DNA of 64,000 nucleotides from positions 1 to 64,000 of the IMG/VR virus record IMGVR_UViG_3300030095_005813; one strand, written 5' to 3'. This document shows positions 11,512 through 60,240 of the stretch, piece by piece. A program made the position numbers and the translations under genes. The first letter of the stretch is position 1, and each line of letters begins with the position of its first letter. This stretch comes from a virus. Its lineage: Duplodnaviria; Caudoviricetes. A model generated the notes under the pieces. That model had not been told where the DNA came from and searched no databases. It was given only the letters and a program-made list of their open reading frames with translations.

Positions 11512-11934
11512 ATGGCTTTTATTCAAGATAAATTAACAACAAATGTTGATACGATTGAAGAATTTATAGGATTTAAATTACCTGTAACATTTGAATCTGT
11601 TAACTTATCTGTTTCTACATTAGAGTCAACACAAACTAATTTAACAAATCTATTATCGACACAAAAAGGTGAAAGGATGTTTCAACCAAATCTTGGGATA
11701 GATTTACGAAGACATTTGTTTAATCCGATTTCTCCAGAGACATCGGTTGCTCTTCAAGAAGATGTTATCGAACAGGTAGCTATTTGGTTACCATTTTTAG
11801 AAATTCAAGATGTTATAATTACTCCTGATGAGGGGAATAATACAATTAATATTAAAATAAATTATAGTTTTAAATCTAACTCTGAATTGACTGAATCAGT
11901 GCAAGTTAATTTAAACACGGGAGCTACATACTAA
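11512..11934 (+). CDS. baseplate wedge subunit, gp25/GPW-like
   Basis: NLLSTQKGERMFQPNLGIDLRRHLF...WLP signature. Confidence 0.9.
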   Translation: MAFIQDKLTTNVDTIEEFIGFKLPVTFESVNLSVSTLESTQTNLTNLLSTQKGERMFQPNLGIDLRRHLFNPISPETSVALQEDVIEQVAIWLPFLEIQDVIITPDEGNNTINIKINYSFKSNSELTESVQVNLNTGATY

Positions 11935-23383: not shown

Positions 23384-23410
23384 AAAAAATGGTTAAAAAC
23401 ACAATAATGA

Positions 23411-23430
23411 CATATTTATATATGAATAGG
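23411..23430 (+). promoter_or_regulatory. putative late promoter CATATTTATATATGAATAGG
   Basis: Exact copy of the 11021 20-mer. Confidence 0.75.
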
Positions 23431-23474
23431 AATATAAATAAAGTTATGTACATTTCAGTATAGGAGAAAATCAA

Positions 23475-34047: not shown

Positions 34048-34768
34048 AGTTTTTATATTTGATGTTGATGGAACATTGACACCATCAAGACTACCAATGA
34101 CAGAAGAGTTTCAAAAGTTCTTTCAGAAATGGGTAACTAAAAATAAATTTTATTTAGTTACGGGTAGTGATTTACCTAAACTACAAGAACAAATGTGTTT
34201 ATATGATATTGAAGCTGAAGGTATATTTACTTGTTGTGGTAATCAATATTGGAAACCAGACCCAAGTATTGTAAATGTAAGTGCAGAATTGATTTATGAA
34301 AACAAATTTGAATTGCCACCACACTTGGATTTATTTTTAAATATCGTGTTGAAACAATCTCCTTATCCTCATCGTTATGGTAATCATATTGAAGACAGAG
34401 GTTCAATGGTAAACTTCAGTATTGTTGGTAGAGATTGTACTCAAGAACAGAGAGAAGAGTTTTTTGAATGGGATAATGAAAATAATGAAAGAGAAAGAAT
34501 AGCAAATATTATAAAAAGTAAAGCTACAGGTATAGATGCTGTCATAGGTGGGCAAATATCAATTGATATTTATCCAGAAGGTTGTGACAAATCACAAATA
34601 TTAAAACATATTGAAGCTGACGAATATGTATTTATAGGTGATAGAACAGAAGAAGGTGGTAATGATTATCCTCTTGCAAAGTTAATGGAAGGGAAAGATA
34701 ATTGTAGTTTTTATCAAACAGAAGGATGGGAAGAAACACAAAAAATATTGGAGAAGTTGAGTGATTAA
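34040..34768 (+). CDS. HAD-IIB phosphomannomutase (eukaryote-type PMM family)
   Basis: FDVDGTLT, VTGSD, IEDRGSMVNFS, GGQISIDIYP, FIGD...GGNDY; GGAGG SD favours ATG 34040. Confidence 0.88.
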   Translation: MNKVFIFDVDGTLTPSRLPMTEEFQKFFQKWVTKNKFYLVTGSDLPKLQEQMCLYDIEAEGIFTCCGNQYWKPDPSIVNVSAELIYENKFELPPHLDLFLNIVLKQSPYPHRYGNHIEDRGSMVNFSIVGRDCTQEQREEFFEWDNENNERERIANIIKSKATGIDAVIGGQISIDIYPEGCDKSQILKHIEADEYVFIGDRTEEGGNDYPLAKLMEGKDNCSFYQTEGWEETQKILEKLSD

Positions 34769-37700
34769 AACGATTGCACATTTAGCGGATATACATATTC
34801 GTAAATTACATAGATTTGTAGAATACAGACAAGTATTTAAAAATCTATATAAACAATTAAAAGAATTAAAACCAGATGCTATATACATTGGTGGTGATGT
34901 GGTTCACGGAAAATTAGATACCTCACCCGAAGAAGTCAGAATGGTTGCAAACTTCTTTTTAGAATTATGTAAGATTGCTCCTACGATTATCATACCAGGT
35001 AATCACGATTGTAATCTAAACAACAAATCGAGAGAAGATACACTTTCACCTATTGTTGATTTAGTTAAAAAGATTACACCAGATTTACACTATTGGAAAA
35101 AGACAGGTGTTTACACAATGGATAATGTTGACTTTGCTCATTTGTCTATATTTGATATTGATAAAGAGGGTAAACAAAGAACTGATACTTTACCTTCTCC
35201 TGATAATCATACAGAACAAATCAAGATTGCATTATTCCATGGTGGAGTAGATAAACATTTATACGACAATAACTTTGCTGTTACTGATGATAGAGTATCT
35301 AATGAAACATTTGAAGGATATGATTTAGTTTTATTAGGTGATATACATAAAAGACAATTCTTGAATGAAGAAGAAACAATTGCATATCCTGGTTCATTGA
35401 TTCAACAAAACTATTCTGAAGACCCAAGTCACGGATTCTTATTATGGGATTTAGATAAAAAGAAAGCAACATATCATCAAGTAGAAAATGAATATGGATA
35501 TAAAATATTACAAGTTGTAGATGGTGTAATTCAAAACAAAATGAATTTTATTCCACCAAAAGGTAGTATTAAAATTAAATATACTAATACAACACTTGAA
35601 CAAATAAAAGATATACAAATGGATATAAGAAAACAATATCCGAAGTTAAAAGATGTTGTAACTGAAAGACAAGATAATATATCTATTGGTTCTGATAGAG
35701 AGAATAAGTTGGATATAGGTGATGTAAGAGATATAAATTATCAGAATGAATTAATCGAAGATTTCTTGAAAAGAAATGTAGAAGGAATACACGAAGAAAC
35801 AATCAAGAGAGTACAACACATAAATGATATGACTAACAATTCACCAGAAATCTATGATGGTGATATTACGAGAAATGTAGATTGGAAAATCAAGTCATTT
35901 GAATTTGATAATATGTTTTGTTATGGTAAAGGTAATAAAATAGACTTTGAAAAACTTGATGGGACGATTGGTGTAGTTGCACCTAACCATAGTGGTAAGT
36001 CGGCTATAATGGATGCAATCGCTTACACAATCTATGATGTATGTTCAAGAACAACACGAGCTATAGATGTTATGAATAAAAAGAAACAAACATTTAAAGC
36101 AAGATTAAATCTGGAAATCAACGGTGTAGATTATTGGATTGAAAGAGATGCTAAGTATAAAGTAAGAAGACATAAAGATGGTAAGAAGACTCATATGTGT
36201 CCAGTTAAAGTTCGTTTCTATATGATAGACGAGGGTGGAGAAGAAGTAGATTTAAGTGGAGCGGCTAGATTTAATTCTCAGTATGGTAGTGGTACAAACG
36301 AGGAAATCAAGAAAGTGTTAGGAACATTTGACGACTTCATTTTAACATCATTATCGCTACAAACCAATGGTATGAACTTCCTTGACAAAAAACAAGCTGA
36401 AAGGAAAAAAATTCTTTCTACTTTTATGGACATTGAGGTGTTTGAACAACTCGAAACCATAGCCAAATCTGATTCAAATGAAGAACGAGTTATGTTACGA
36501 CAATTTCAAAAGAAAGATTCTTATAAAGAATTGGGTACAATTAATCAAAGAATTATTGAAATGGAAAAAGATGAAGAAGAGTTAAGCACAAAAGATAAAT
36601 CAATTAGTGACGACTTAACTAAATTAGAAAAAGATAAAATTGAATTAGTTAGAAAGTTGTATAAAATAGATGAAACTTATGATATAGACGAATTAAGTAC
36701 TCTTAAAAGTAGTCTTACAACTGAAAAACAAGATTTAAAAAAACAACTCAAAGATGATAAAGAATACAAAGAACAGCTTCGTCCAATGTATATGGATTAT
36801 CATAAAAAATTAGCTGAGATTGATGAAGAAAAAATACAAGAAGAATATGATGAATATAAAGAATTAAAAAAAGATTTAAGAGACTTAGAAAGTGCTTTAA
36901 GATTGAATGAATCAAAAACTAAATCTTTAAATCATCACAATTCTGATTTGATGAAATTTACTTATGATGAAGATTGTGAATTTTGTATTAAAAATGGTAA
37001 AGAACAAATACACGAACAAGAAGAAATACAGAATAAAATAAAGGAATTATTTGATGAACATTCTAATTTAACAGCTCATTATAAAAAAACTTCATATAGT
37101 TTAGAAAAGTTAGGTGACGCTGAAGAAAGAAATAAAGATTTTAAAATATTCTCAGATGAATTAAATCAAATACAACACGATGCTGTTAAGATTGGTGGAA
37201 AGATTTCTACACAAGAAAGTAGATTAAAACATATTGAAAGTGAGTTAACTAATGTAGAATCAAGTATTAAACGATACTATCAATTAGAAGAAAAGATTGA
37301 AAACAACAATAAGTTAAATGATAAAATATCTACTTTAACTACGGAAATATCTAAACTGCAAATGGCAGGTATAGAAGTGGATAAAAAATATAAACAAGTT
37401 CTTTCCACATTATCAGTAGCTAAAAATCAAAAACAACAGATAGAAGACGATATACAAAATCTTGTTGATATAGAACAAAAGATATTAGATTATGATTTAT
37501 ACTTAATGGCATTATCCAAAGATGGTGTCCCATATGAATTAATCTCAAAAGCTATCCCTTCAATAGAAAGAGAAATTAATTATGTATTGGAGAATATGAA
37601 TGCTGGTTTCCACATTGAATTAGAGATGAAAGACAAAATGATTGATGCCTTTATATGTTATGGTGAAACAAAATGGAATCTTGAATTATCATCAGGTATG

Positions 37701-37964
37701 GAAAGATTTGTATCTTCATTAGCTATCAGGATTGGATTAATCAATGTATCAACATTACCTCGTCCTAACTTCATTATTGTAGATGAGGGATTCGGTGCTT
37801 TAGATTCTGATAACATCGCTAATATGCAGGGAGCATTTCAATACTTGAGAACTCAATTTGATTTCACAATGATTATAACTCACTTAGATACAATCAAAGA
37901 TTATATGGATATGTTGATTCCGATTAATGTTAAAAATGGACTAAGTAAAGTTACTTTTGTATAA
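34761..37964 (+). CDS. fused Mre11/SbcD nuclease and Rad50/SbcC ATPase (gp47-gp46-like)
   Basis: DIH, GGD, PGNHD, GDIH, YPGS; Walker A NHSGKS; CEFC zinc hook; LSSGME signature; VDEGFGALD; ITH. Confidence 0.93.
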   Translation: MIKTIAHLADIHIRKLHRFVEYRQVFKNLYKQLKELKPDAIYIGGDVVHGKLDTSPEEVRMVANFFLELCKIAPTIIIPGNHDCNLNNKSREDTLSPIVDLVKKITPDLHYWKKTGVYTMDNVDFAHLSIFDIDKEGKQRTDTLPSPDNHTEQIKIALFHGGVDKHLYDNNFAVTDDRVSNETFEGYDLVLLGDIHKRQFLNEEETIAYPGSLIQQNYSEDPSHGFLLWDLDKKKATYHQVENEYGYKILQVVDGVIQNKMNFIPPKGSIKIKYTNTTLEQIKDIQMDIRKQYPKLKDVVTERQDNISIGSDRENKLDIGDVRDINYQNELIEDFLKRNVEGIHEETIKRVQHINDMTNNSPEIYDGDITRNVDWKIKSFEFDNMFCYGKGNKIDFEKLDGTIGVVAPNHSGKSAIMDAIAYTIYDVCSRTTRAIDVMNKKKQTFKARLNLEINGVDYWIERDAKYKVRRHKDGKKTHMCPVKVRFYMIDEGGEEVDLSGAARFNSQYGSGTNEEIKKVLGTFDDFILTSLSLQTNGMNFLDKKQAERKKILSTFMDIEVFEQLETIAKSDSNEERVMLRQFQKKDSYKELGTINQRIIEMEKDEEELSTKDKSISDDLTKLEKDKIELVRKLYKIDETYDIDELSTLKSSLTTEKQDLKKQLKDDKEYKEQLRPMYMDYHKKLAEIDEEKIQEEYDEYKELKKDLRDLESALRLNESKTKSLNHHNSDLMKFTYDEDCEFCIKNGKEQIHEQEEIQNKIKELFDEHSNLTAHYKKTSYSLEKLGDAEERNKDFKIFSDELNQIQHDAVKIGGKISTQESRLKHIESELTNVESSIKRYYQLEEKIENNNKLNDKISTLTTEISKLQMAGIEVDKKYKQVLSTLSVAKNQKQQIEDDIQNLVDIEQKILDYDLYLMALSKDGVPYELISKAIPSIEREINYVLENMNAGFHIELEMKDKMIDAFICYGETKWNLELSSGMERFVSSLAIRIGLINVSTLPRPNFIIVDEGFGALDSDNIANMQGAFQYLRTQFDFTMIITHLDTIKDYMDMLIPINVKNGLSKVTFV

Positions 37965-38199: not shown

Positions 38200-41100
38200 T
38201 TGAGTGATGGTATAAAAAGATTTCCACCAGAATTTGATTCTACTAAAAAATATCCTAGGCAATATGATTTAGAACAGATTGATGTTTATGTAGAAGCATC
38301 ACCTGGTGAATATTTTAACATAAATGGATTACCGGAAAACATAGGATTCGGTAAACACGCGTTTACTATTTTTGTGACAGATGCGGAAGGTGGTGCACCA
38401 CTAAAAAACTTTTCTAATGTGTTATTTGAAGCAAAAGACTCTGCAGGAAATCTCATATATTCAGGAGTTTCTAATAAACAAGATTTAAGTGGTGCTAGTG
38501 TTTGTTTCATATGGATAAAAGAAGACCCAATAACTACAACAAACGATATACAGCAGGGTATAGGTTCTTTAACATTAGTAGGACAATTACAAGATGTACC
38601 TACTCAATATCAAAATGTTTATAATGTAAGAACAACTTTTCCTTTAAATATAAGAACAGATTTTTTAAACACTTCACCAATATTATTTCAAAGTTCTTCA
38701 AAAATAGCTTCTGATTTAACTATTACAGAAACTTTAGAAGCTGATATTGACAATCCAAATTTTAACAAATCATATGCTAACATCACTATAAAAAATTTAG
38801 AAACTTTTGGAGGTGAAGTTGAAACAATTCAAGTTAGTTATTTAGAAAGTGGTTCTTTATCAGTTTTACAAGATGAAGAATTTACACTTTTAACTCAACA
38901 ACGAGTAAATAAAGTTAGTGGTTCCTTTGAAGATGATATTGATTTTAGAATTTCAAGAGGATTGAATCCAATAAGTCAATCTCTAAGAGTCGTGATGCCT
39001 CCTATGGCAAATCAATCAGGTAGTAACTTTGGATTAGGTGACAACAAATTTAAATTTAAATTTGAATTTTTAAATAAAAATAATGAAAAGGCAAAAGATT
39101 TTGATTCAGGTGAAGATTTAAATATAACATCTTCATTTGTTGATTTCGTTGGACCGGCTACCGTTATAACAGGTGAAAACAATTTAATAGCAGGACAAAT
39201 GTATGTAGGTAACTCTGTTGGTCAAGGATTAGAAGTAAGTGCAGAAAACTCAGCATTTCTGAGAAGTATTGGTTATTTAGGATTCACAAGTGCATCAGCC
39301 GGAAGTGGTTCTGGTTTTATGTTATATTCAGGTTCTGTTTTAGCAGCAAATACTGATGATTATCAACAAGGTGGTGTTGGATTTGAATTTGTTTCAAGTT
39401 CAGAAGCCTTTATGAGATTCAATACAAATCCTGGTATCTTTGATGTTAGAGCAAAATCATTTTTCGTAGGTAGTGAAACTACACAATTCATTAGTGGTAG
39501 TGGTACAAATATAGAAATATCTGCTTCTGGATTTCATTTAACACCGGAAGGTAATGTTACAATGTCTGGCCAACTTGCAGTTGAAGCAGGTGGTACACTT
39601 GGTGGGTTTACAATAGGAGAAGATGCTTTATTTACAAGCAATTTTAGACTTAGTAGTAGTGTTAATAACAACGACCCTGTTTCATTTATTTCTTCAAGTA
39701 AATTTAAAGTAAGTGCAGGTGGTGTTCTTACAGCTTCAGCAGCATTTATTGAAGGGGCAATAATAACAGGTTCAACATCAATTGATGTTGGAAATGATAT
39801 TAAAGTTAAAGGTGTAAAAGTAGCAGCGTTAAATATTAATAACGAAATTACTTTAGGTGGTGACACTGCACAACTTACTGCATCATCAGCTATAATTAAT
39901 GATTTAACTTATAGCGATATGAGTGGTTCGTTTATTTCTGCCTCTGGTATAAGACTTGATGGTAATATGGTTGTAGATGGTACCGTTACAGCTAATACTT
40001 TTGTTACAAACACAATTCAAGAAAACTTTTCAACTGGTAACACGATATTTGGTAATTCAAATGACGACATTCATGCATTTACAGGTTCAGTAGTAATACA
40101 ACATACTGGGAGTAGTAATACTGGTTTATTATTATCAGGTTCTGATTTAAAAGTTGTTGGTGACATAAGTGCTAGTGGAATTCTTATAACTGGATTAGGT
40201 ATCAGTATGCCTGATAGTAAAGGGATAGCTTTTACTGATACGGGTATAGGAGATATGCAACTCGTAGGTGCAAGCAATAAACTTGCAATTTATAGTGGTT
40301 CTTTTCCAAAGATAATTTTTGATGTATCACAATCAGCAACTCCAAAAATAGGTATAGGAACAACAGCTCCAACAAAGGCATTACAAGTAACAGGTGACAT
40401 AAGTGCTAGTGGCGACATTTTTCTTGGTCACAACAAATTTCTTAGAAATAATGTCGGTGATACAGCATTATTAGGAGAATTTGGTAATATAGTTTACATT
40501 GGAAGTATAAACCATAAAACATTATTTCAAGGAGATACAACTAACGGTATACAATTTGGTCAAAATACATCAATACCATTAGTGATGAAAGGGCACATAA
40601 CCGCAAGCGGAGACATAAGTGCGAGCGGTAATTTAATTGCAACTGGTGATTTAAACATCGATGGAAAATCTCATTTTGAAGGAAACATAACTGCTAGTGG
40701 AAACATAAGTTCAAGTGGTAACATATATGCTTCAAAATATTATTTACATCCAACAAAAGATACTTTCATTGGTTCACTTGATGATGGTGACGATGTAAAT
40801 ATTGAGTCTGTTGATGACATAAGACTTAGACCAACTGATGATATATCCATTCATCACGGAACTACAGAATATGTAAGATTTGATGGTGGAAATCAAAGAG
40901 TTGGTATCGGAACAGATAGTCCTTCTGAAAAACTTCACATAGATGGTAATGTAAGAACAAATACAACACAAGGTTACTATGGCTCTTTTGTGCAAGCAAT
41001 TAGTAATGCTGGATTAAAATTAGGTAATGATGATTATTCAGGATTTATGTTTTTTAAAGATGATGGGAAAATCGGTATCGGGACAGAAAGTCCTTCTGAA

Positions 41101-44100
41101 AAACTTGATGTTGATGGTAATATAAAAACCACAGGTAATATATCATCACCATCATTTCAAAGTGGATTTGCTGGTAGTGGATTTAGAATCACATCAGGTT
41201 CAGATGGAAAAACATCTTTTGCAGTTGATGATTTAACCGTTCGTGGACAAATGAATGTATTTGAAATGTTAATACATCAAGTGAGAGCAACAAATGGTTC
41301 ATTATTTGTATCCAACACAGGAAGAATAATATCTGCAAGTTTAGAAAATGCATCAACAAAACAATACAAATTGTTCTTTGATACTGGTTCAGGTTATGGC
41401 CATTCATTTAGAGTAGGTGATGTAATAAGAGCTCAAAGATTTACACCAGCTGTTTCAGGAGACAATGATGGTGTGACAGATGGTCCTGCAAGTTATAAAT
41501 CTGATTTAACAATTGAATCTGTTACTGGTATAAGTGAATCAATAGCAAGATTAACAGGTTCAAATGGTACGACAGATGCTCCGACAGCAGGTTATGAATA
41601 TGTAAGGATTGGAAGTATATCAGATACTGATAGACAGGGTTCAATTTACTTAACTGCAGATGATGATGACGCTCCATTTATTGATGTTGCAGATGGTATA
41701 AAAACACATGCAGGTTTTAATACAACTGGTACCGTTAAAACCAGAATGGGTAAATTAACAGGTATAACTTCGGCTAAATTTGGAACACTATCTGGTTATG
41801 GATTTTATTCTTCTGGGTCATCTTTCTTAGAAGGTGCAATTAACGCTGATAAAGGTTCAGTCGGTGGTTGGTCTTTAAGTAATTCTATTATTTCAAGTTC
41901 AAATATTACTTTAGATTCTGTTAATGAAAAAATAACAATAGAAAATACTACTTTTGGAGCTGCAGGTGTTCAGTTAGAAAACGATAGTGGTGGTAAGTTG
42001 TATGCAGGAGATGGTTCAAATAAATTTTTACAATTTGATGGAACAAATGCTTTAATAAAAGCATCAAATTTTGAACTTGATAGTAGTGGTAACATTACAG
42101 CTTCAAATGCGTTGTTGAGTGGTAAATTAACATCAACAGAAGGTGCTATCGGTGGTTTTACAATAAATGAAAAAAGTTTATCATCTACTAATTTCACATT
42201 ATCTGCATCAACAGCAACAAATGAATTATTTATATCACACTCATCGTTTAAAGTAAAAAACTCAGGACAAGTTACAGCTTCTGCTTTATTATTAACAGGT
42301 TCTGCAAATACAAACTTTTTACAATTTACAAATGGTGTGTTGACTATTCGTGGTGATGTTGCTGCGTCATCTCTTTCAACAACAAACTTTAATGTTAATT
42401 CAGCAGGTCAAATAACTGCTTCTGCTGGTACAATTGGTGGATTTACAATATCTTCAACTTCACTTACAAGTGGTTCAAAAATAGTATTAGATGCTTCTCA
42501 ATCATTATTTAGTATAAATGATAGAACCTTTGGTAATGATGGAATACAATTAGATTTCAATGGAGGCTCACCAAGAGCATTCATAGGAAATAAAACAGGT
42601 TCACATTTTAATTTTGACGGGACAAATGTATTTATTTCTTCATCTAAATTTTTATTAGGTAGTGGAGAACAATTCATAAGTGGTTCTGGTGGTAAATTAC
42701 AGATTAGAGCTCAAGATGTAGTGTTATCAGGTTCAAGTGTTAGAGTTCAAACAGATGATTTCTTTTTAGGAGGCCAAGGTAGTTTTATAAGTGGAGCAAA
42801 TGACCAAATTGAAATCACATCAAGTCAATTTCATTTAGATAGAGATGGTAATGCAACATTTGGTGGCGATATTAAAGTTGGTTCACAACCATCACAAACA
42901 AATTTAAATGATGGTTTAATTCTTCATTATAATTTTGACCAATATAGTTCTGAACAACAACCAGGAGCAAGATTTCCATTACGAAACAATGTAGAAGAAT
43001 TTAGAGATATGACTGCTGACATTTCAATTGGTAATGGGAGTATTGAGGCAAGTAGTGGTAGTAATGCAATCGTAAACACTGGTTTATTCTTTTCAGGTTC
43101 TGATAGAACAAAAACAATAACATTAGACCACGACACAATTAACTCAGATATGATTGACACTAATAATTATAGTCTTTCATTTTTCTTTAAACCTGTAAAT
43201 GTTGCTAGAGAAGGTGACCCACCACAACAAATATTTGGTGCTGGTGGTTCGTCAAATGGATTCAATGCTTTCATTACTGCAAGTAAAATCATTACTAACT
43301 TTTATGAAACAGATAAGGGTTCTGTTACAAGTGCAAGTATTGCAAACAACACAATGTATCATCTTGTAACTACATATGAAGGTGGTGAAGCAAAACTTTA
43401 TTTAAATTCAGAATTAATTCAAACAGACAACATTAGTGTAGGAACAATAACAGGGTTTAGTGGTAAAATATTTTTAGGTGGTTTTACTTCTAATCAAGAA
43501 TATTATTTAACATCAGGTTCTGTTCCAATTAATTTTAGTGGAACTCAACAACCATATGAAGGTTATCTTGATGAAGTTAGATTGTATAAAGGTAAAGTAT
43601 TAACACAAAATGAAGTTAGAGCTATATTTTTAAATCCACAAGCAAATGTTTCAAATGTTGTGAATGGTGGACAAATTGAGGCAGGTATAATTAAATCACT
43701 TAACTCATCTGCAACAGCAGGAACAATATTGAATCTTCAAGCAGGTGAATTACATGCTGGAGGTTCTGGAAGTAGTGCAAGATTTTTATTTGATGGTACA
43801 CAATTAAGAGTTTCTGCAAGTAATTTCTTCGTAGGTAGTGAATCATTCATAAGTGGTTCAGGAACCAATATAGAAATCAGTTCATCTGGTTTCCATTTGA
43901 AACCTGAAGGTGATGCAATCTTTAGTGGTTCAATAACTGCTAACGATGGTACTATAGGTGGATTTACTTTAGGAACAACAAAACTAACAACAACAGGTTT
44001 TGAAATTGGAAATTCATCAACTGATTTTGCTCTTAGTTCAAGTAAATTTCAAGTCACACACGATGGTCAATTAACTGGTTCACAAGTATTAGTAGATGGT

Positions 44101-44532
44101 GGTAAAATTGGTGGTTTTGATATTACATCAAATCAATTAAGTATTGATAATATTAAGTTATCATCATTAGAAAAAGGTTTAGTAATTAGTAGTAGTGATG
44201 GTCAAGGAAAGGTATTGATTTCATCTGGAAGTTTATCTTCTACGGTTGGGTCAACAACAAATTATTTTGTTACACCAAGTTTTGAAGGGCTATCAACTGA
44301 TTTAGTAATAACTGGTTCACACGGTGGTACCTCAGTAGGTGCATGGCATATAAAAAATGATACAGCTACAGGAAGTAGAAATGAAGAATTATGGAACTCA
44401 GGTTCAGTTTCAATGAGTCTTTCTGATACAAGTGGCCAGGCAGGAGATGGTTCGATTCATTTAAGAATAAATGTGAAAAGAGAATTAGGCCCTCCAGGTT
44501 CAGGATTAACAGACGGGTTTGACCCAGAATAA
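38200..44532 (+). CDS. large tail fibre/adhesin with LamG domain
   Basis: ITASGDISASG, IGIGT..P and G.IGGF repeats; MYHLVTTY...LYLN...YEGYLDEVRLY LamG motif; GGAG SD plus TTG. Confidence 0.8.
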   Translation: MSDGIKRFPPEFDSTKKYPRQYDLEQIDVYVEASPGEYFNINGLPENIGFGKHAFTIFVTDAEGGAPLKNFSNVLFEAKDSAGNLIYSGVSNKQDLSGASVCFIWIKEDPITTTNDIQQGIGSLTLVGQLQDVPTQYQNVYNVRTTFPLNIRTDFLNTSPILFQSSSKIASDLTITETLEADIDNPNFNKSYANITIKNLETFGGEVETIQVSYLESGSLSVLQDEEFTLLTQQRVNKVSGSFEDDIDFRISRGLNPISQSLRVVMPPMANQSGSNFGLGDNKFKFKFEFLNKNNEKAKDFDSGEDLNITSSFVDFVGPATVITGENNLIAGQMYVGNSVGQGLEVSAENSAFLRSIGYLGFTSASAGSGSGFMLYSGSVLAANTDDYQQGGVGFEFVSSSEAFMRFNTNPGIFDVRAKSFFVGSETTQFISGSGTNIEISASGFHLTPEGNVTMSGQLAVEAGGTLGGFTIGEDALFTSNFRLSSSVNNNDPVSFISSSKFKVSAGGVLTASAAFIEGAIITGSTSIDVGNDIKVKGVKVAALNINNEITLGGDTAQLTASSAIINDLTYSDMSGSFISASGIRLDGNMVVDGTVTANTFVTNTIQENFSTGNTIFGNSNDDIHAFTGSVVIQHTGSSNTGLLLSGSDLKVVGDISASGILITGLGISMPDSKGIAFTDTGIGDMQLVGASNKLAIYSGSFPKIIFDVSQSATPKIGIGTTAPTKALQVTGDISASGDIFLGHNKFLRNNVGDTALLGEFGNIVYIGSINHKTLFQGDTTNGIQFGQNTSIPLVMKGHITASGDISASGNLIATGDLNIDGKSHFEGNITASGNISSSGNIYASKYYLHPTKDTFIGSLDDGDDVNIESVDDIRLRPTDDISIHHGTTEYVRFDGGNQRVGIGTDSPSEKLHIDGNVRTNTTQGYYGSFVQAISNAGLKLGNDDYSGFMFFKDDGKIGIGTESPSEKLDVDGNIKTTGNISSPSFQSGFAGSGFRITSGSDGKTSFAVDDLTVRGQMNVFEMLIHQVRATNGSLFVSNTGRIISASLENASTKQYKLFFDTGSGYGHSFRVGDVIRAQRFTPAVSGDNDGVTDGPASYKSDLTIESVTGISESIARLTGSNGTTDAPTAGYEYVRIGSISDTDRQGSIYLTADDDDAPFIDVADGIKTHAGFNTTGTVKTRMGKLTGITSAKFGTLSGYGFYSSGSSFLEGAINADKGSVGGWSLSNSIISSSNITLDSVNEKITIENTTFGAAGVQLENDSGGKLYAGDGSNKFLQFDGTNALIKASNFELDSSGNITASNALLSGKLTSTEGAIGGFTINEKSLSSTNFTLSASTATNELFISHSSFKVKNSGQVTASALLLTGSANTNFLQFTNGVLTIRGDVAASSLSTTNFNVNSAGQITASAGTIGGFTISSTSLTSGSKIVLDASQSLFSINDRTFGNDGIQLDFNGGSPRAFIGNKTGSHFNFDGTNVFISSSKFLLGSGEQFISGSGGKLQIRAQDVVLSGSSVRVQTDDFFLGGQGSFISGANDQIEITSSQFHLDRDGNATFGGDIKVGSQPSQTNLNDGLILHYNFDQYSSEQQPGARFPLRNNVEEFRDMTADISIGNGSIEASSGSNAIVNTGLFFSGSDRTKTITLDHDTINSDMIDTNNYSLSFFFKPVNVAREGDPPQQIFGAGGSSNGFNAFITASKIITNFYETDKGSVTSASIANNTMYHLVTTYEGGEAKLYLNSELIQTDNISVGTITGFSGKIFLGGFTSNQEYYLTSGSVPINFSGTQQPYEGYLDEVRLYKGKVLTQNEVRAIFLNPQANVSNVVNGGQIEAGIIKSLNSSATAGTILNLQAGELHAGGSGSSARFLFDGTQLRVSASNFFVGSESFISGSGTNIEISSSGFHLKPEGDAIFSGSITANDGTIGGFTLGTTKLTTTGFEIGNSSTDFALSSSKFQVTHDGQLTGSQVLVDGGKIGGFDITSNQLSIDNIKLSSLEKGLVISSSDGQGKVLISSGSLSSTVGSTTNYFVTPSFEGLSTDLVITGSHGGTSVGAWHIKNDTATGSRNEELWNSGSVSMSLSDTSGQAGDGSIHLRINVKRELGPPGSGLTDGFDPE

Positions 44533-44574
44533 AAAAATGATAAGTATATATTTATATATTAACAGGAGATTTTA

Positions 44575-47500
44575 ATGTCATTTACACGACTAAAAAAATA
44601 TGATTTTGCAGTATCACAATCTATTAGTGGTAGTTTTACTATTGGTGATACGGTTGAGGCATCCTTTTTAGCTAAAGCTAATAATGTAAATGTAAATTCA
44701 CATACAACACAATTTGTTGATTTAAAATATTCTGTGTTAAGTGAAAGTATTGATTTAAAAGAATTTCCTAAAGGCACATTTCCTGAAAGATTTTATATTG
44801 GTAATAGTTATGTTACAAAAAGTTTTGTGGCAGGTATACCAGAAGAAATACAATATGTTCAATTCACATTAACAGGTTCAATAAATTCTACAGGTTCACA
44901 CACTTATAGTAGTGGTGGCCTTTCATATGCAAATGATTTACAATTAGATTATGATGCATTTCAAATAAAAGTACACAGACCTAAAACAGAATTAAAAGAT
45001 ACAGGATTATTAGTATTTACATCTCCAAGTAAATATATAAAAGCAGATTCAGATGGTGTTGAAATAAAAGGTGGTCAAATTCAAGCAGACAAGTTGACGG
45101 TAGAAACATTAGAAGTATTTGGAGACGCTGCAATATTTGGTGATGTTACAGCTACAGCAAATTCACCATACACAAGTACACCTAATTTAGTAGGTTTATC
45201 AGGTAGCCAAGGTAGTGTAGCTACATTTGCTAGAGGTGACCATCAACATGCTTTACCTTTTTCAACAATCAATACTTTAGCTCAACAAAATGAATTTACA
45301 AAAATAAGTGGTTCAAAAACTTCAACTGGTTCATTCGGTGAAATAGAAGTGCATATAGGAGGAACTGCAAATAATTCATTAACAATATCAGATGTATCTA
45401 CTGGTATAGGTAGACCAAATCTTTCATCAGAAAATACAATATTCATTCAACAAGGAACTTCTAATCAAACACAATTTGGAGGTGATGTTATACCTACTTC
45501 AACTAACACAAAAGATTTAGGTTCAGCTGGAAGACAATGGGCAGAATTCCATGCTGTTTCATCATCAGTTAGTCATTCCATAGTTAGTAGTAAAGTTGGT
45601 ATTGGAACATTATTTCCACCAAAACCATTAACCGTAGAAGGTGACATAAGTGCTAGTGGCCACTTTTTTCTTGGTCACGACAAATTTCTTTATAATAATC
45701 TTGGTGATACAGCATTAATAGGAGAATTTTCTGGATTAGTTTACATTGGAAGTATAAACCATAAAACATTATTTCAAGGAAATAAATCTAATGGTATACA
45801 ATTTGGTCAAAATACATCAATACCATTAGTGATGGAAGGACAAGTAACTGCAAGTGGAGAAATAAGTGCAAGTGGAATAATTACTTCACCTAATATCTTA
45901 GCTATAACAACAACTACAGGTTCTCTTTTAAGTAGTATAGATTCAATATCTACCACGACTGGTTCATTGTTAACAAGTATTGATACAATATCTTCAATTA
46001 CCAGTTCTTTATTCGCTACAACAGGTTCATTGTTAGCAAGCATCGATACAATATCTACTACAACTGGTTCATTATTAGCAAGCATCGATACAATATCAAC
46101 AACAACTGGTTCATTGTTAACAAGTATTGATACAATATCAACAACAACAGGTTCATTGTTAACAAGTATTGATACAATATCAACAACAACTGGTTCATTA
46201 TTAAATAGTGTAGATTCAATATCAACAACAACAGGTTCATTGTTAAGTAGTGTTGACTCTATATCTGCTACCACTGGTTCATTACTTAATAGTATTGACG
46301 AAATATCTTTAACAACTGGTTCATTATTAAATAGCATAGCTTCTATATCAACCGTAACAGGTTCATATGCTATAACAGGTAGTGATGTAACATTTGGTAA
46401 TGTAACTTTAGGGGAAATAACTGCAAGTGGGAATGTAAAAATAGATGGTGATATAAGTTCAAGTGGAACTTTAAGAATTTCAACAATTCGAGATGCAAAT
46501 GATGAGGGTTCTTCATCTGATTTATCAGTAGATGCAGCTAATTTATTAAACATTGGTTCTTCTCAAGCAGATGAAATAAATATTGGTAGACAAGACAATA
46601 CATCAGTCGATATTAACTTGTATGCAGGTTCATCAACACCATCAATAAGAATGATAAATAAAGGTATTAAAATTAATCATCCAATAACTGCAAGTAGTAA
46701 TATAAGTTCAAGTGCTAATATTGAAACACTTCACACTGGTTCATTTGGAAAAGGATTTTTTAAAGGAAGAGTTGGAATCGGAGTAACAAATCCAAATACA
46801 GAGTTAGAAATTTATAGTGCTAATTCAGAAGCATATCACTATCCATTAGTGTTAAGGAATCCATATAATAGTGAAACTAATCTTGACTATGGTGTTGGAA
46901 TAAAATTTCATCTTGATGATGCTAATGATAATAAGTTTGGTTCTATAGCATATGAAGCTCAAACAAGTTATGCCAACATAGGTAACTTAAAATTTTATGT
47001 AGACCAAAATGATACTACAACACCAATAGCAACAATGACCACAACTGGTTTAGGAATTGGAACAACAACTCCATCAGCTAAACTAACAATAGAAGGTGAT
47101 GTTGCAATAAGTGCAAGTGGTGATATTGATATTGCAAATGAAAAAAGAATTAGATTTGCAGCTAGTGATGGAACATATTCAGATGATGGTTCAATAAGAA
47201 GAGCTAGTGGTGAAGCCATAAGATTTAGATATGATAAAAATGCTTTTATTTTTGATGCTATAGAAAATGATAATTGGGAAATAAGAAATAGTGGTGATTC
47301 ACCAGTATTTAGAGTAAATACAAACAATGGTACTTCTATCTTTAGTGGTAGTGCTGGTCAGTTTTTCAGTTTAGAACACAACACAGGACACATTGGTATT
47401 GGGGTATCAAATCCAACTGCACCACTGCATGTTGAAAATGATGGTTCGGTTAGTAATCTTCTAGCATATTTTAAAAGTGGAGACCAAGCGGCAAAATTAA

Positions 47501-50500
47501 GATTAGAAGATGATGATACTATGGCTTATTTTAATGTTCTTGATGACACCATTAGATTCAACTTTTCAAGTGATGCTTCACACGCTGGTTTAACAATAAA
47601 ATCAGGAAGTACAACGGCAGTAAATGTTGGTATAGGAACAACAAGTCCAGACTACGCATTAGATGTGGTTGGTGATGTTGGTATTGATAAATTTATATAT
47701 CATAATGGTGATGATGATACATTCTTTAAATTTCAAGATGCTGAAGACAATATACAACTTTCAGCTGGTGGTTCTCATCTTAACTTTACATCTACAGGTT
47801 TAGGTGTTGGTGTAACTGCTACAGAAAAATTTGATGTTGATGGTAATATAAAAGCTAGAGGTAACATTTCATCACCAACTTTCTTTAGTGGTTTTGCTGG
47901 TAATGGTTTTAGAGTAACTTCTGGTTCAAAATATTCTTTAGAAGTTGATGATTTAACCGTAAGAAATTCAATGTCAGTATTTGAATTACTAATACATCAA
48001 GTTAGAGCAACAAATGGTTCTCTGTTTGTTTCAAATACTGGTAAAATAATTTCAGCTTCTAAAACCTCTAATTATTCTGAAGACCATCGTGAATTTAATT
48101 TATTCTTTGATACAGGTTCAAATTACGGACATTCATTTTTAGTTGGTGATTTGATTAGAGCACAAAGATTTCAACCTTCAACTAATGGTTCTGGTTCTCA
48201 AGTGTTTAAATCAGATTTTCACATCATTGGTGTAAATGGTACAACTTCATCTTTAGCAAGATTAACTGGTTCAGATGAGCCTGAAATAGGTTACGAATAT
48301 GTAAGAATTGGAAGTACAACAAACACAGATAGACAAGGGTCTATTTATATGACTGCTGATGATGAGAATGCTCCATTCTTAGATGTAGTTGATGAATTAA
48401 CAGCTCATAGTCAATTCAATACAGCAGGTAAAACAAAAGTAAGATTGGGTAAGTTGAGTGGTATCACTACAACAACATTTGGAACATTACCTGGTTATGG
48501 ATTTTATGCAAGTGGTAGTGCTTATCTTGAAGGTTCAATAAATGCTACTGCTGGTGAAATTGGTGGGTTTGGAATAAATAAGTCTACAATATCAAGTTCA
48601 AATGGTAATTTAAAATTATTTAGTGATGGTGTAATATCAGGTTCAGATGTACATTTTAATGGTGGTACAATTGGTGGATTTACAATTGATTCTGATGAAA
48701 TTAAAGCTGGTTCAACTTTAGTATTAGATTCTGATACAAATAGTGGAGAAATAAAATTAGGTGGTGCATCAGATATTACAACTGGTGATGGTATCTATAT
48801 GGCTGGTGATAAAAAGTTTAGAGTAGGACAAGCATCAGATAACTTTATAAGATTTAACAATACTGCAAATAAATTAGAAATAAAAACACCTTCATTAACT
48901 TTAGATTCAAGTGGAAACTTAACTACAATTGGAACAATATCATCAAGTGCAGGTAACATTGGTGGTTGGACAATCGATACAGATAAACTTGCCAAATCTA
49001 ATTTATTTGAATTAGCACCTAATGCAACTTATGTGATTTCATCATCTAATTTCAAAGTCAGTAATGCAGGAAGTATAATAGCAACCGCTGGTACAATTGG
49101 TGGATTTGGATTAGGTGCAACAACAATTTCATCCTCAACAGGTACTTTGATATTAACAAATACTGGACAAATTACAGCTTCAGATGCAGACATAACTGGT
49201 AAAATAAATGCCACATCAGGACAATTCAGTGGTGATGTTATAGCTACTCACATCAATACTGATAGTGGTTCAATTGGTGGATTCACAATTGATGGTCATT
49301 CATTGACAACAGATGGTGTTGAAATTAATAAAACAGGTCAATCATTATTTATTAGTTCGAGTGATTTCAAAGTAAGTCATACAGGTGAATTAACAGCTTC
49401 AAATGTAAGAGCTGATGGTGGAACTATTGGTGGATTTGCAATTGATGAATCAACATTAAAATCAACTGGTAATAACATTATTATAGATGCTGTTTCCAAT
49501 GATGGTAAAATAACAATTGGTAATATTGGATTTGGCCAAAAAGGTATTCAATTAGATAACAATAATGGCCATCCAAAATTTTATGTTGGTGATGGTGGAA
49601 CCACTATGGGTTCTGATAACTTTATTAGTTTTACATCTCAGAACGGACTTTTAGATGTTAGTAGTCCTACATTTCAATTAGATGCATCAGAAGGAACTGC
49701 ATTTTTAAGTGGGTCAATAAGTGCAAGTGCAGGTGAAATTGGTGGATTTTCTTTAGGGATAAATAAAATATCAAGTAAAAATTTAATTCTTTCATCATCA
49801 ACAGATACAAATGAATTTATAATATCAGCAAGTAATTTTAATGTGAAAGCAGGCGGACAAATTACTGCATCAAATATACGAACAGATGGTGGTACGGTCG
49901 GTGGATTTACAATAGATGAAACATCCATTAGTTCAAATGGATTAACATTAAAGTCTAATGGACAATTAACAGGTTCTGCTGTTTCAATGAGTGGAACAAT
50001 TGTAACTGATGATATATCAGCTACAGGTGGTACAATTGGAGGATTTACATTAGATACTAATTTAAAAGCTGGTAATGATGGAGCAGGTGGTTCTGCTATT
50101 GATATTAATCCATCAACACCAAGTATTAAATTAGGAGCCAAAGAATCTATAGCTGATAATGATGGTGATACAGGTGCATTCTTAACTGACCAAGCAATTG
50201 CAATAGGACCACAATCAGCAACTCAAGGATTTAGAGTTACAAGTCAAGGTGTAGTTACTGCATCTAATGCATTAATAAGAGGTAATTCTCAAGTAGCTGG
50301 TTTTGATGTTTCAGATTCACAAATATCATCTCAAGCAGGAACATTAGTATTAAAATCAAGTGGACAAATAACTGCTTCAGCTGTATCAATGAGTGGTCAT
50401 ATAATAGCAGATAGTGGAATAGTAGGTGGATTTTCCATTGATAATAATGAAATCAGTTCTTCTGGCATCTTAATACAACCATACGCAGGTTCAGCAGTAA

Positions 50501-51069
50501 CACCTTCAATTGAATTGGGTGGAAAATCTCAGGCTCTGAGCTCTAATCCAGGCGTTTTTATTGGCAAAAATGTATTTTTTGGTGCTGGGTATGGTATAGC
50601 AATTGGAGATACAAATGTTATAAGTGGAACTGAACCTGGCGGGTTTGTAGCTGCAACAGGTACTGATAGTGATGATAATGTTGTTGCATTTGGCCAAATT
50701 AAATCTGCTTATGCTGAAGCTGTAGGTAATACATCATATGTAATGTATAGACCAACTTCAGGTTTATTAATTCAACATCCAAACTTTAGTTTAAGAGATG
50801 GTCAACTACAAATAAGTGCATCAGGTAATAAACCAACAAATATAAAACTTGCAAGTGATGGTATAAGCACTGGAATAGAAATAGGTAATAAAACAGGAAT
50901 AGTTGGTCACGGTGATGTTACATCACATGCATTTCAAACACACGATGGTAATTTTCAATTTGGTGAAGATACTATTTCAGTACCTGGTGGTGGTGGAGGT
51001 GCTCAATATGGTACAGATGGTACTTTAACAAAAGGTGGGGAAAATCAATATAATCCATCTGGTGATTAA
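44575..51069 (+). CDS. large tail fibre protein, partly paralogous to upstream gene
   Basis: Same repeat types; shared LIHQVRATNGSLFVSNTG block; 14-aa tandem repeat. Confidence 0.8.
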   Translation: MSFTRLKKYDFAVSQSISGSFTIGDTVEASFLAKANNVNVNSHTTQFVDLKYSVLSESIDLKEFPKGTFPERFYIGNSYVTKSFVAGIPEEIQYVQFTLTGSINSTGSHTYSSGGLSYANDLQLDYDAFQIKVHRPKTELKDTGLLVFTSPSKYIKADSDGVEIKGGQIQADKLTVETLEVFGDAAIFGDVTATANSPYTSTPNLVGLSGSQGSVATFARGDHQHALPFSTINTLAQQNEFTKISGSKTSTGSFGEIEVHIGGTANNSLTISDVSTGIGRPNLSSENTIFIQQGTSNQTQFGGDVIPTSTNTKDLGSAGRQWAEFHAVSSSVSHSIVSSKVGIGTLFPPKPLTVEGDISASGHFFLGHDKFLYNNLGDTALIGEFSGLVYIGSINHKTLFQGNKSNGIQFGQNTSIPLVMEGQVTASGEISASGIITSPNILAITTTTGSLLSSIDSISTTTGSLLTSIDTISSITSSLFATTGSLLASIDTISTTTGSLLASIDTISTTTGSLLTSIDTISTTTGSLLTSIDTISTTTGSLLNSVDSISTTTGSLLSSVDSISATTGSLLNSIDEISLTTGSLLNSIASISTVTGSYAITGSDVTFGNVTLGEITASGNVKIDGDISSSGTLRISTIRDANDEGSSSDLSVDAANLLNIGSSQADEINIGRQDNTSVDINLYAGSSTPSIRMINKGIKINHPITASSNISSSANIETLHTGSFGKGFFKGRVGIGVTNPNTELEIYSANSEAYHYPLVLRNPYNSETNLDYGVGIKFHLDDANDNKFGSIAYEAQTSYANIGNLKFYVDQNDTTTPIATMTTTGLGIGTTTPSAKLTIEGDVAISASGDIDIANEKRIRFAASDGTYSDDGSIRRASGEAIRFRYDKNAFIFDAIENDNWEIRNSGDSPVFRVNTNNGTSIFSGSAGQFFSLEHNTGHIGIGVSNPTAPLHVENDGSVSNLLAYFKSGDQAAKLRLEDDDTMAYFNVLDDTIRFNFSSDASHAGLTIKSGSTTAVNVGIGTTSPDYALDVVGDVGIDKFIYHNGDDDTFFKFQDAEDNIQLSAGGSHLNFTSTGLGVGVTATEKFDVDGNIKARGNISSPTFFSGFAGNGFRVTSGSKYSLEVDDLTVRNSMSVFELLIHQVRATNGSLFVSNTGKIISASKTSNYSEDHREFNLFFDTGSNYGHSFLVGDLIRAQRFQPSTNGSGSQVFKSDFHIIGVNGTTSSLARLTGSDEPEIGYEYVRIGSTTNTDRQGSIYMTADDENAPFLDVVDELTAHSQFNTAGKTKVRLGKLSGITTTTFGTLPGYGFYASGSAYLEGSINATAGEIGGFGINKSTISSSNGNLKLFSDGVISGSDVHFNGGTIGGFTIDSDEIKAGSTLVLDSDTNSGEIKLGGASDITTGDGIYMAGDKKFRVGQASDNFIRFNNTANKLEIKTPSLTLDSSGNLTTIGTISSSAGNIGGWTIDTDKLAKSNLFELAPNATYVISSSNFKVSNAGSIIATAGTIGGFGLGATTISSSTGTLILTNTGQITASDADITGKINATSGQFSGDVIATHINTDSGSIGGFTIDGHSLTTDGVEINKTGQSLFISSSDFKVSHTGELTASNVRADGGTIGGFAIDESTLKSTGNNIIIDAVSNDGKITIGNIGFGQKGIQLDNNNGHPKFYVGDGGTTMGSDNFISFTSQNGLLDVSSPTFQLDASEGTAFLSGSISASAGEIGGFSLGINKISSKNLILSSSTDTNEFIISASNFNVKAGGQITASNIRTDGGTVGGFTIDETSISSNGLTLKSNGQLTGSAVSMSGTIVTDDISATGGTIGGFTLDTNLKAGNDGAGGSAIDINPSTPSIKLGAKESIADNDGDTGAFLTDQAIAIGPQSATQGFRVTSQGVVTASNALIRGNSQVAGFDVSDSQISSQAGTLVLKSSGQITASAVSMSGHIIADSGIVGGFSIDNNEISSSGILIQPYAGSAVTPSIELGGKSQALSSNPGVFIGKNVFFGAGYGIAIGDTNVISGTEPGGFVAATGTDSDDNVVAFGQIKSAYAEAVGNTSYVMYRPTSGLLIQHPNFSLRDGQLQISASGNKPTNIKLASDGISTGIEIGNKTGIVGHGDVTSHAFQTHDGNFQFGEDTISVPGGGGGAQYGTDGTLTKGGENQYNPSGD
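45913..46365 (+). repeat. coding tandem repeat, about 10 units of 42 bp (TTGSLLxSIDxIST)
   Basis: Visible in DNA and protein; one offset partial unit. Confidence 0.9.
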
Positions 51070-53673: not shown

Positions 53674-53698
53674 AAAATGATGATAAAAACAAAAATAA

Positions 53699-53718
53699 CA
53701 TATTTATATATGAATAGG
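53699..53718 (+). promoter_or_regulatory. putative late promoter CATATTTATATATGAATAGG
   Basis: Third exact copy of the 20-mer. Confidence 0.75.
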
Positions 53719-53726
53719 ACTATATA

Positions 53727-60100: not shown

Positions 60101-60240
60101 TTTACATAGGTAGTTCAGCAGGAAAAATAAATAATACCGTATCATCTACAAGTGGTGACATAGTAAGAGTTGTAGGCCATAGTTATGGTAATGGTGTTGT
60201 TTATTTTAATCCTGATAACACATTTATTGAAGTTGCATAA
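57184..60240 (+). CDS. modular tail fibre protein
   Basis: MPNWKKVITSGS start; many HITASG.IS.SG junctions; three internal repeats; C-terminal IVRVVGH...YFNPDNTFIEV. Confidence 0.8.
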   Translation: MPNWKKVITSGSNAQLNQITASGDISVGDATVKTLTLTHHTDGTDRSAYPGNFYMGSNNVISSDDSLYVDGAFRAGDGIFIVSNSPTTDEVVTIDGNMNISSHITASGDISSSGIIHSSSSIKTNLTKLVTYDDATGIFHITASSGFVNGAGGGTTTNGLTAGTGVDMGNGTGGQIFNGASALTLNLDLTEVITSDGANRVLTSDGDGTLTAEANLAFDGNGVDVTGHITASGTISASGTIIADAITTGNSAFHNGIFNSGPVNPKLKISSSNDILIESSDDIFFKSDGTTIAQIKGGEAILDLNGTLDVSSHITSSGNISSSGIINASASIKSNLTKLVTYDDATGIFHITASSGFVNGDGGGDGDMTGVDLTGGSGITIGSETNTTSGDYSATISVASATISGSFLGQNVLSGSALEGTRTIISGSVNSTGSFGRVEAVGIITAEGLVISDDAEITDDLTVNGDIDLEGDIDVNGTANLDAVDIDGNVQLGGNLTVGTNGSSHDIEVHSNTSGKKFNWHATNAYMNFVDNTKLSFGTPATAGGYDSAIYSDGTVNRFQGVIGDILLDTHGDNCNRVFISGSGQSNFAVHGHITASGNISASGNVITSQVGSADDDLLVRGENITNTLDVGGDFIIQEGVTERLKFDGGDDSFTLTGNITTSGNISSSGTIISNDITADAVTGVDSILNTGLKVGRDSTDLIDFTSDNQIKFRVNDVNEFVLAENIFRPGGSGGAGLGNSAKKWSELVVNHITASNNISASGLLMSSASIKGNLTKLVTYDDATGQYHITASSGFVNGSSGGGSGDMTGVDLTGGTNVSIASETNTTSGDYSATINLDDSITLAGDFLQSGPGAGNYVSSSQGNLELSGSGKGQLEVDYRLFDTGSGGVAGSVGQAVGDVIKFGGSVTSPGRLYHLTGTGTWSTTRRDIVGSCTGSLAIALGTNSTNDGMMIRGMVSCSTQFSYSSSIGGPVYIGSSAGKINNTVSSTSGDIVRVVGHSYGNGVVYFNPDNTFIEVA

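Follow-up and report, generated by a model that had tools for sequence, protein, structure and literature searches.

The first 64,000 nucleotides (nt) of a 114,459-bp linear virus record in IMG/VR (IMGVR_UViG_3300030095_005813; 31% G+C), hereafter the window, carry two adjacent fibre genes, gA and gB, which share a 195-bp cassette whose copies differ in twelve codons by a replacement and in one codon by a silent change. The question raised by this locus is whether such an excess of replacements marks a module that is being diversified, by selection or by a local mutator, or whether a plainer history may account for it. Our reading, to which we assign a probability of roughly two thirds, is that the core of a fibre module was recently copied between the two genes and then took up near-neutral, clustered changes which are now fixed.

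The two copies align without gaps over the whole 195 nt with 19 nucleotide differences (176/195 identical, 90.3%), and both are in phase with their own open reading frame (ORF; offset 0 from 38200 and from 44575). Identical codons account for 52 of the 65; the remaining 13 comprise one silent pair (AAC/AAT) and twelve replacements (D/H, I/F, N/D, R/Y, V/L, L/I, G/S, N/G, I/L, D/N, T/K and T/S). In four of these codons two or three bases are changed (AGA/TAT, GTC/CTT, GGT/TCT and AAT/GGA). The first 21 nt are the same in both copies, and (K/E)G(H/Q)(I/V)TASG(D/E)ISASG follows in both genes. This agrees in every detail with an earlier description made from the bare letters of the window (hereafter the sequence-only reading), which had reported the ungapped cassette with its twelve replacement codons against one silent codon. 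In a blastn search of the window against itself the pair appears as a match of 84.5% over 291 nt with E=1.4e-87, and only two copies exist, no third one having been found in the 114,459-bp record, which is about 65% complete; the likeness is therefore not due to chance. The cassettes are direct repeats at a distance of 5,247 bp, in frame and codon-aligned, and share identical runs of 42 and 44 nt. Contigs from four independent marine runs of four studies (X2, X16, X17 and X19) span the cassette edges with no differences, at 40101-40423 (X16) and 40453-40659 (X17) for gA and at 45004-45766 (X2) and 45689-45987 (X19) for gB. The same cassettes are present in full-length proteins from several independent sources, namely five gA variants (2110 amino acids, aa) and four gB variants.

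Silent divergence within the cassette is low. Nei-Gojobori counting gives 2.3 silent steps over 41 silent sites (with 154 replacement sites), i.e. a proportion of differing silent sites (pS) of 0.057, against 0.66 in the 16 codons downstream, 0.28 in the 16 codons upstream and 0.50 in an older paralogous block further along the same genes (Table 1). The older block shows the opposite pattern of conserved protein with many silent changes, as the sequence-only reading had also noted: among its 260 aligned codons 111 are identical, 60 differ by silent changes only and 89 by replacements, and the proportion of differing replacement sites (pN) is 0.24. At conserved residues the same codon is used in 52/53 cases in the cassette and in 111/171 in the older block (Fisher p=1.1e-7). 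A pairwise codon model estimates t=0.345 and a ratio of replacement to silent rates (omega) of 1.11 for the cassette, and t=1.48 and omega=0.146 for the 32 flanking codons; the maximum-likelihood codon fit of the older block was saturated (t unbounded) and was not used. As silent divergence is so much lower than in the flanks and in the older block, the core is likely to have been copied recently from one gene to the other, and a non-reciprocal copy or gene conversion between gA and gB, which had been proposed from the sequence alone, is well supported by these comparisons.

The edges of the tract lie in or next to conserved motifs. At the 5' side the edge lies within the 21-nt identical run, which belongs to the conserved motif coding for GDISASG; at the 3' side it is sharp and falls just ahead of the downstream motif, which stayed unhomogenised (14 differences over 48 nt with seven silent steps, and a pN/pS-type ratio of 0.14). 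The upstream motif differs between the genes at 15 of 48 nt, and at silent sites the two flanking motifs are saturated. Among other proteins none with the core was found in the range of 103-2000 aa, and only gA and gB in the range of 1160-3693 aa. A blastn search of the GenBank phage collection with 40200-41000 gave no match, and the exact 38-nt core pattern did not occur in the viral contig collection. A search for related loci recovered two viral ones and 15 on metagenome contigs; 16 of these 17 (all but L002) do not carry the core and show short matches only, chiefly to the motif of about 65 nt at 40349-40415 and to ITASG-type motifs, with one of them (L003) also matching the older block in blastn. 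As the core is missing from these loci, they provide no outgroup. The best N-terminal relatives are only 34-36% identical.

The twelve to one ratio was then compared with what neutral change would give. The Nei-Gojobori (NG86) omega of the cassette is 1.97 (Fisher p=0.19). The GY94-type model, run with the codon frequencies of gA and gB together, gives the omega of 1.11 quoted above with a transition bias (kappa) of 1.0; in likelihood ratio tests (LRT) this differs from omega=0.2 (p=0.0056) and not from omega=1 (p=0.89). When 19 changes were placed at random in simulations, starting from either copy with the genome base composition and a transition bias of 1 or 3 (4000 trials per setting), at most one silent codon resulted in 8-15% of trials. 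A ratio of 12:1 is to be expected of near-neutral change in this AT-rich coding sequence. The clustering of the differences is a statistically robust oddity: the 19 differences are packed into 13 codons where the simulated mean is 17.3, 13 or fewer codons being reached in 0.05-0.18% of trials, and this together with at most one silent codon in 12 of 20,000 trials (p=0.0006). Codons 18, 21 and 31-33 hold 11 of the 19 differing bases, and codons 31-33 form a patch with six of nine bases changed. Elsewhere omega is 0.146 in the flanks, as given above, and 0.076 in an internal repeat of another fibre gene (ORF 57184-60240), where 57484-57644 and 58114-58274 share 32 identical codons out of 53, with 14 silent-only differences and seven replacements. 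Since this repeat shows the ordinary pattern, the cassette pair is the odd one out in the genome. The replacement sites of the cassette have evolved much faster than their surroundings, not demonstrably faster than neutral.

The differences themselves bear traces of their origin. Only three of the twelve replacement codons differ at the third position, against 49/89 in the older block (binomial p=0.035), and both members of GAC/CAC and of AAC/GAC end in C, the less common choice (GAC 44 vs GAT 231; AAC 63 vs AAT 225). Replacement codons with several changed bases make up 4/12 in the cassette and 60/89 in the older block (P(<=4)=0.016), and silent-only codons make up 1/13 and 60/149 of the differing codons, respectively (P=0.012), so that the differences are also no random draw from old divergence. 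Between the differences the identical runs are as short as 0-15 nt. Because third bases and rare codons are shared and multi-base codons are few, an origin of the differences after the copy is favoured. Donors of the multi-base patches were sought with 14-mers spanning the differences: those of copy A recur nowhere else in the genome, and those of copy B recur only at a site resembling a ribosome-binding site (55227) and at 61480, neither of which is a donor. The patches may stem from multi-nucleotide events, from conversion-associated errors or from repeated selected hits, which two sequences with no outgroup do not separate.

In natural populations the cassette is constant. No residue of it differs among the full-length variants (five of gA, four of gB), which differ elsewhere, at aa 63 and 1775 in gA and at aa 902, 919-922, 1110 and 1467-1514 in gB. 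When contigs of the four runs were aligned to 40000-46200 at a likeness of at least 93%, the cassettes had no variant letter, with 17 variant sites listed elsewhere in that interval. The sequence-only reading had suggested looking for polymorphism at the same codons in populations; these are invariant both in the full-length variants and in the four-run contigs. With omega not demonstrably above 1 once codon bias is modelled (1.11, p=0.89) and with residues that do not vary in populations, its proposal of diversifying selection or localized mutagenesis is not upheld. In the shaft of gA the nine codons listed as variant (aa 1028-1037 and 1432-1448) show silent changes only. The gA variant P0151 differs at aa 1775, inside the Laminin_G_3 domain, and a minor X2 contig (160 nt, depth 2.7) at 43497-43656 (gA aa about 1783-1808) has 11 base differences, of which the eight listed sites hit six Laminin_G_3 codons with five of six replacements, in this single contig of low depth. 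It looks as if gA varies in nature at its lectin-like domain and not at the cassette. In gB two tight groups of replacements were observed in full-length variants from other sources, one at about 47278-47340 (aa 902-922: E902D, G919N, S921T and I922F) and one at about 48973-49116 (I1467L, A1473K, V1487I, N1497S, T1507Q, L1513I and G1514A); aa 902-922 and 1467-1514 are possible host-interaction patches.

A diversity-generating retroelement (DGR) does not fit the locus. No reverse transcriptase candidate (RVT_1, PF00078) was found in the 114,459-bp record, while control genomes matched. Adenine occupies eight of the 19 differing sites in copy A and four of 19 in copy B, i.e. there is no adenine bias, and seven of the 19 changes are transitions. 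The earlier statement that this is not a classical DGR holds on all three counts, the lack of an RVT_1 match, of a third copy and of an adenine bias.

The cassette is part of a large family of modules. A 112-aa piece around copy A has 1416 matches at E<=1e-3 among 1.84 billion representative proteins, and the 150 best proteins contain 70 stretches that cover most of the module, several of them in some proteins. The family has a conserved head, (I/V)G(I/V)G(T/N)..P...L.V.G.IS(A/S)SG, a core of about 58-65 residues which is variable in sequence and length, and a conserved tail, (H)(I/V)TASG.IS(A/S)SG, together about 100 residues. The cassette as originally delimited corresponds precisely to the variable core together with the seven final residues of the head motif. 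Three short motif-coding stretches, at 40349-40415 (about 65 nt, in the upstream motif), 40621-40827 and 45175-45381, have a nucleotide identity of 79-94% to many marine contigs that are otherwise unrelated, and all three show depth spikes and many loose ends in the contig alignments. A peptide that does not vary, encoded with strong codon bias, may suffice to explain the motif matches in unrelated contigs.

A Pfam scan of the fibre genes found no family over the cassette, and a PDB sequence search with gA aa 561-1000 gave chance-level matches only (E>=0.11). In the ESM Atlas unnamed viral clusters scored 0.94, and leads to adenovirus fibre and bactofilin (0.89-0.90) were set aside as being under useful confidence. 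The AlphaFold (AF2) monomer of the 112-aa piece is poor (pLDDT 65, pTM 0.22). The model with three copies of the module is an intertwined homotrimer with ipSAE 0.87, the best of three controls scoring 0.00. In calibration this mark was reached by 20/30 proteins solved as one-chain pairs and 1/23 solved as single chains, counts which hold only roughly here, the trimer run having used its own alignment and three copies. Contact agreement between the trimer runs was at least 97% and partner pLDDT at least 89. The model lends support to a predicted homotrimeric module. The cassette lies at 35% of the length of gA and at 16% of that of gB, and the sequences around it differ considerably between the two genes. 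As it is far from the C-terminal ends and is modelled as a trimer, it is probably a shaft module and not a receptor tip. The place of the variable residues in the model says nothing specific, since nearly every residue of the model is listed at the interface, including ten of the twelve variable ones. The term receptor-binding module, used in the sequence-only reading, is not supported for a population-invariant segment in the middle of the protein which is modelled as a trimer and has no Pfam or PDB match, replacement variation lying elsewhere. The likelier binding part of gA, as predicted from its sequence, is the Laminin_G_3 domain.

The history that we favour would run as follows. A widespread module of about 100 residues, made up of GIGT..P...L.V.GDISASG, a core and ITASG.ISASG, would have been present in each of two anciently paralogous fibre genes, and its core would recently have been copied from one gene to the other by non-reciprocal homologous recombination (gene conversion), with the 5' edge of the copy in the 21-nt identical stretch coding for GDISASG and the 3' edge immediately ahead of the downstream motif. 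About 19 base changes would then have arisen in the cores and become fixed in the population. Most single-base differences would be ordinary post-copy mutations, and three or four multi-base patches (codons 18, 21 and 31-33) may be due to multi-nucleotide events or to repeated hits at tolerant or selected codons, with no active diversity-generating mechanism operating at the cassette. The transfer mechanism, the order of events and the shaft role are what we infer from the patterns described above.

Several observations weigh against this history. Omega of 1.1-2.0 in the cassette is above the background of 0.08-0.15, so that simple purifying selection fails (p=0.0056 against 0.2), and positive selection at a subset of codons is possible. 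Two three-base codons (AGA/TAT and AAT/GGA) beside about one silent change sit uneasily with neutral mutation one base at a time. No long identical stretch is present at the 3' edge, only short shared runs being found beyond 40587, and no relative of intermediate divergence was found which could serve as an outgroup for the direction of transfer and the donor. Contigs and predicted proteins drop rare variants, and minor alleles may have escaped. The record being about 65% complete, the missing part could hold a reverse transcriptase or a third copy.

Among the rival explanations, positive (diversifying) selection driving a handful of residues apart after the copy is unlikely in our judgement. 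In its favour, the omega of the cassette is well above that of the flanks and of the repeat in the other fibre gene (p=0.0056 against 0.2), the concentration in 13 codons has a p of about 0.001 (0.0006 jointly with the deficit of silent changes), four codons carry two or three changes each, and the differences are fixed, as expected of paralogue-specific residues; moreover, if only part of the 154 replacement sites were free to change, the rate at these would have to exceed the silent rate. A possible reason for such selection would be distinct partners for two co-expressed trimeric fibres, or blocked co-assembly. Set against neutrality, however, no test is significant (Fisher p=0.19, simulation 0.08-0.15, LRT p=0.89), the differing positions are not enriched in the most variable columns of the family (Mann-Whitney p=0.52), the place of ten of the twelve variable residues at the modelled interface is uninformative, as said above, and the replacements are mostly mild (BLOSUM62 -2 to +2). 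Multi-nucleotide events alone can mimic the signal: according to one study, the great majority of multinucleotide mutations are nonsynonymous and lead to positive selection being inferred wrongly (10.1101/165969). The cassette resembles such cases in having adjacent multi-base changes which nearly always replace the residue and inflate the ratio of replacements to silent changes, and differs in that two sequences with no outgroup leave single events inseparable from successive hits. Long-running concerted evolution, in which old cores would have been converted repeatedly and the twelve replacements would be old paralogue-specific residues protected by selection, is improbable. In support of it, multi-base codon differences are typical of old divergence (60/89 in the older block), three silent-type differences which the replacements did not need (GTC/CTT third position, AAT/GGA third position and AAC/AAT) lie in or beside replacement codons, the differences are fixed in the population, and two reports describe this pattern for other paralogues (PMC3728101; 10.1101/2020.08.04.234435). 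Such a history is opposed by the mostly shared third positions (3/12 vs 49/89 differing, p=0.035), by the rare C-ending codons common to both sides of D/H and N/D, and by the share of multi-base replacement codons, only 4/12 against 67% in the older block (P(<=4)=0.016). Identical runs of 0-15 nt are also much shorter than plausible conversion tracts, and the conserved motifs next to the core, on which conversion should act most readily, were not homogenised.

Targeted hypermutation of the cassette, DGR-like or by another localized mutator, is very improbable and largely refuted. Its appeal is that the differences are confined to one short tract, are clustered and mostly change the amino acid. 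Against it stand the lack of an RVT_1 match in 114 kb with controls matching, of any third or template copy and of an adenine bias (with seven of 19 transitions and a fitted kappa of 1.0), the position of both copies in coding sequence in the middle of the protein rather than in a C-terminal variable region, and the absence of variation in the nine full-length variants and in the four-run contigs. A mis-assembled repeat, with one cassette pasted in as an artefact, has a negligible chance of being the explanation: Logan contigs do tend to break within the cassettes, and one 379-nt X16 contig joining gB to gA sequence shows that assemblers can cross here, but copy-specific variants are linked to their own flanks with no differences in four runs of four studies and identical cassettes occur in full-length proteins of several independent sources. 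The assembly chimera named in the sequence-only reading as a possible objection is not the case, each copy being tied to its own flanks. The 379-nt contig (depth 4, close to that of the phage) passes from 45595-45792 into 40546-40718 by way of the 42-nt run common to both cassettes, so that a gB head meets a gA tail, and the codon alignment of the repeats makes such a crossover in frame. As a real crossover it was not accepted, being indistinguishable from a de Bruijn (31-mer) crossing of the 42-nt repeat, and it is kept as a lead only. Other joints (40178>45845, 40716>45318 and others) have sides of 21-31 nt and come from short motifs shared with other organisms. That the cassettes are a standing crossover site for hybrid fibres (gB head with gA tail, or the reciprocal deletion), with the twelve fixed replacements marking the trimer of each paralogue, is in our view distinctly improbable.

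Table 1. Coordinates of the two fibre genes, the cassette copies and associated features in the window.
Feature	Position	Strand	Description
gA	38200..44532	+	2110-aa fibre ORF, TTG start; cassette copy A at aa 732-796
gB	44575..51069	+	2164-aa fibre ORF; cassette copy B at aa 356-420
Cassette copy A	40393..40587	+	65 codons; variable core of the probable shaft module in gA
Cassette copy B	45640..45834	+	65 codons, in gB
Upstream conserved motif of module A (KIGIGTTAPTKALQVT)	40345..40392	+	gB partner 45592-45639; conserved family-wide
Downstream conserved motif of module A (KGHITASGDISASGNL)	40588..40635	+	gB partner 45835-45882
Older paralogous block of gA	41098..41913	+	gB partner 47824-48612; 69.3% nt identity over 834 columns
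Laminin_G_3 (ConA-like lectin) domain of gA	43135..43617	+	Pfam match, aa 1646-1806, E=4.4e-12

Both genes match phrog_33450 (tail fiber protein), gA at aa 981-1082 (E=7.2e-22) and gB at aa 1098-1201 (E=4.1e-18), in both cases outside the cassette, and for both the similarity to a fibre family is accompanied by a context of baseplate genes. The two proteins are 40% identical over 731 aa in blastp (E=4e-110) and are, on this similarity, adjacent old paralogues. About eight tandem copies of a 42-nt (14-aa) unit resembling TTGSLL.SIDTIS are found in gB at 46018-46366 (aa about 482-597); they start shortly after cassette B, and a similar unit is present near the end of the next fibre-like gene.

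The baseplate genes include a gp25-like wedge gene at 11512-11934 (GPW_gp25, PF04965, E=3.4e-12) and, adjoining it, a gp6-like wedge gene at 11934-14147 (phrog_219, E=1.1e-20). Judged by these wedge genes, this marine phage is contractile-tailed, a myovirus. The completeness of the record quoted above was estimated by CheckV. Of 24 listed public runs (11 studies), all labelled marine or aquatic metagenomes, 20 contain 63% or more of the words sampled from 39800-41200, and the run with most of them may be the source sample. Upstream of gA an ORF of 1067 aa at 34761-37964 combines an N-terminal Metallophos (Mre11/SbcD-like) part with SMC_N and SbcC Walker B (Rad50/SbcC-like) parts, and appears from these domains to be a fused nuclease-ATPase of the gp47/gp46 type. 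An intergenic repeat of 53 nt, 87% identical between its copies at 23384-23436 and 53672-53724, lies in both places directly 3' of the stop of a large structural ORF and ahead of the next genes; its core ACATATTTATATATGAATAGGA is invariant, and the first copy contains a TATAAATA box, which we take to resemble the T4 late-promoter consensus. At 62762-63840 there are 5.3 tandem copies of a serine-rich unit of 204 nt (68 aa) with 78% identity, in a fibre-like ORF which starts at 61934, runs off the window and also has ITASGNISSSG motifs.

The locus offers a base-pair view of a shaft module moving between two fibre genes of one uncultured marine myovirus, and a worked example of why a 12:1 count of replacements to silent changes, in a tract this short and AT-rich, does not amount to evidence of diversifying selection. 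If the multi-base patches were indeed selected or conversion-associated, it would be a small case study of fibre paralogues staying distinct after homogenisation. For host range the lectin-like domain of gA and the parts of gB where the phage varies in nature are the more useful lead. Word searches of the literature, from which the motif strings themselves were left out, turned up no publication that deals with either this phage or the module.

Phage fibre genes are known to swap short fragments at conserved motifs, as in g37/g38 of the T-even phages and in the fibre segments of P2, Mu and P1. The present case shares with this mosaic evolution a coding fragment flanked by motifs and of high nucleotide identity between otherwise diverged fibre genes, and a family with conserved ends and a variable core; it differs in that the exchange took place within one genome, between adjacent paralogues, with no third carrier in the collections searched. 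For the DGR the type that we take for comparison is Mtd of Bordetella phage BPP-1, likewise a short repeated cassette of a fibre gene whose copies differ mainly by amino-acid-changing bases, whereas here there is no reverse transcriptase, non-coding template, adenine specificity, C-terminal position or population variability. Fragment shuffling in phage proteins is also described in a published report (PMC10684548). Interlocus gene conversion with fixed differences has been reported for GOT1 in Tigriopus (PMC3728101) and for ATP1A1 in Leptodactylus frogs (10.1101/2020.08.04.234435), and these cases have in common with ours a tract of low silent divergence with sharp edges between older paralogues and a few fixed amino-acid differences inside it; in distinction to the protected islands of those sources, the shared third positions and rare codons of the phage cassettes fit change after the copy better. 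The cassette exchange belongs to a known kind, module exchange or gene conversion, and not to the DGRs. It is unusual in being intragenomic, in covering just the part which is variable in the family and not the motifs, and in having differences that are clustered and mostly replacements.

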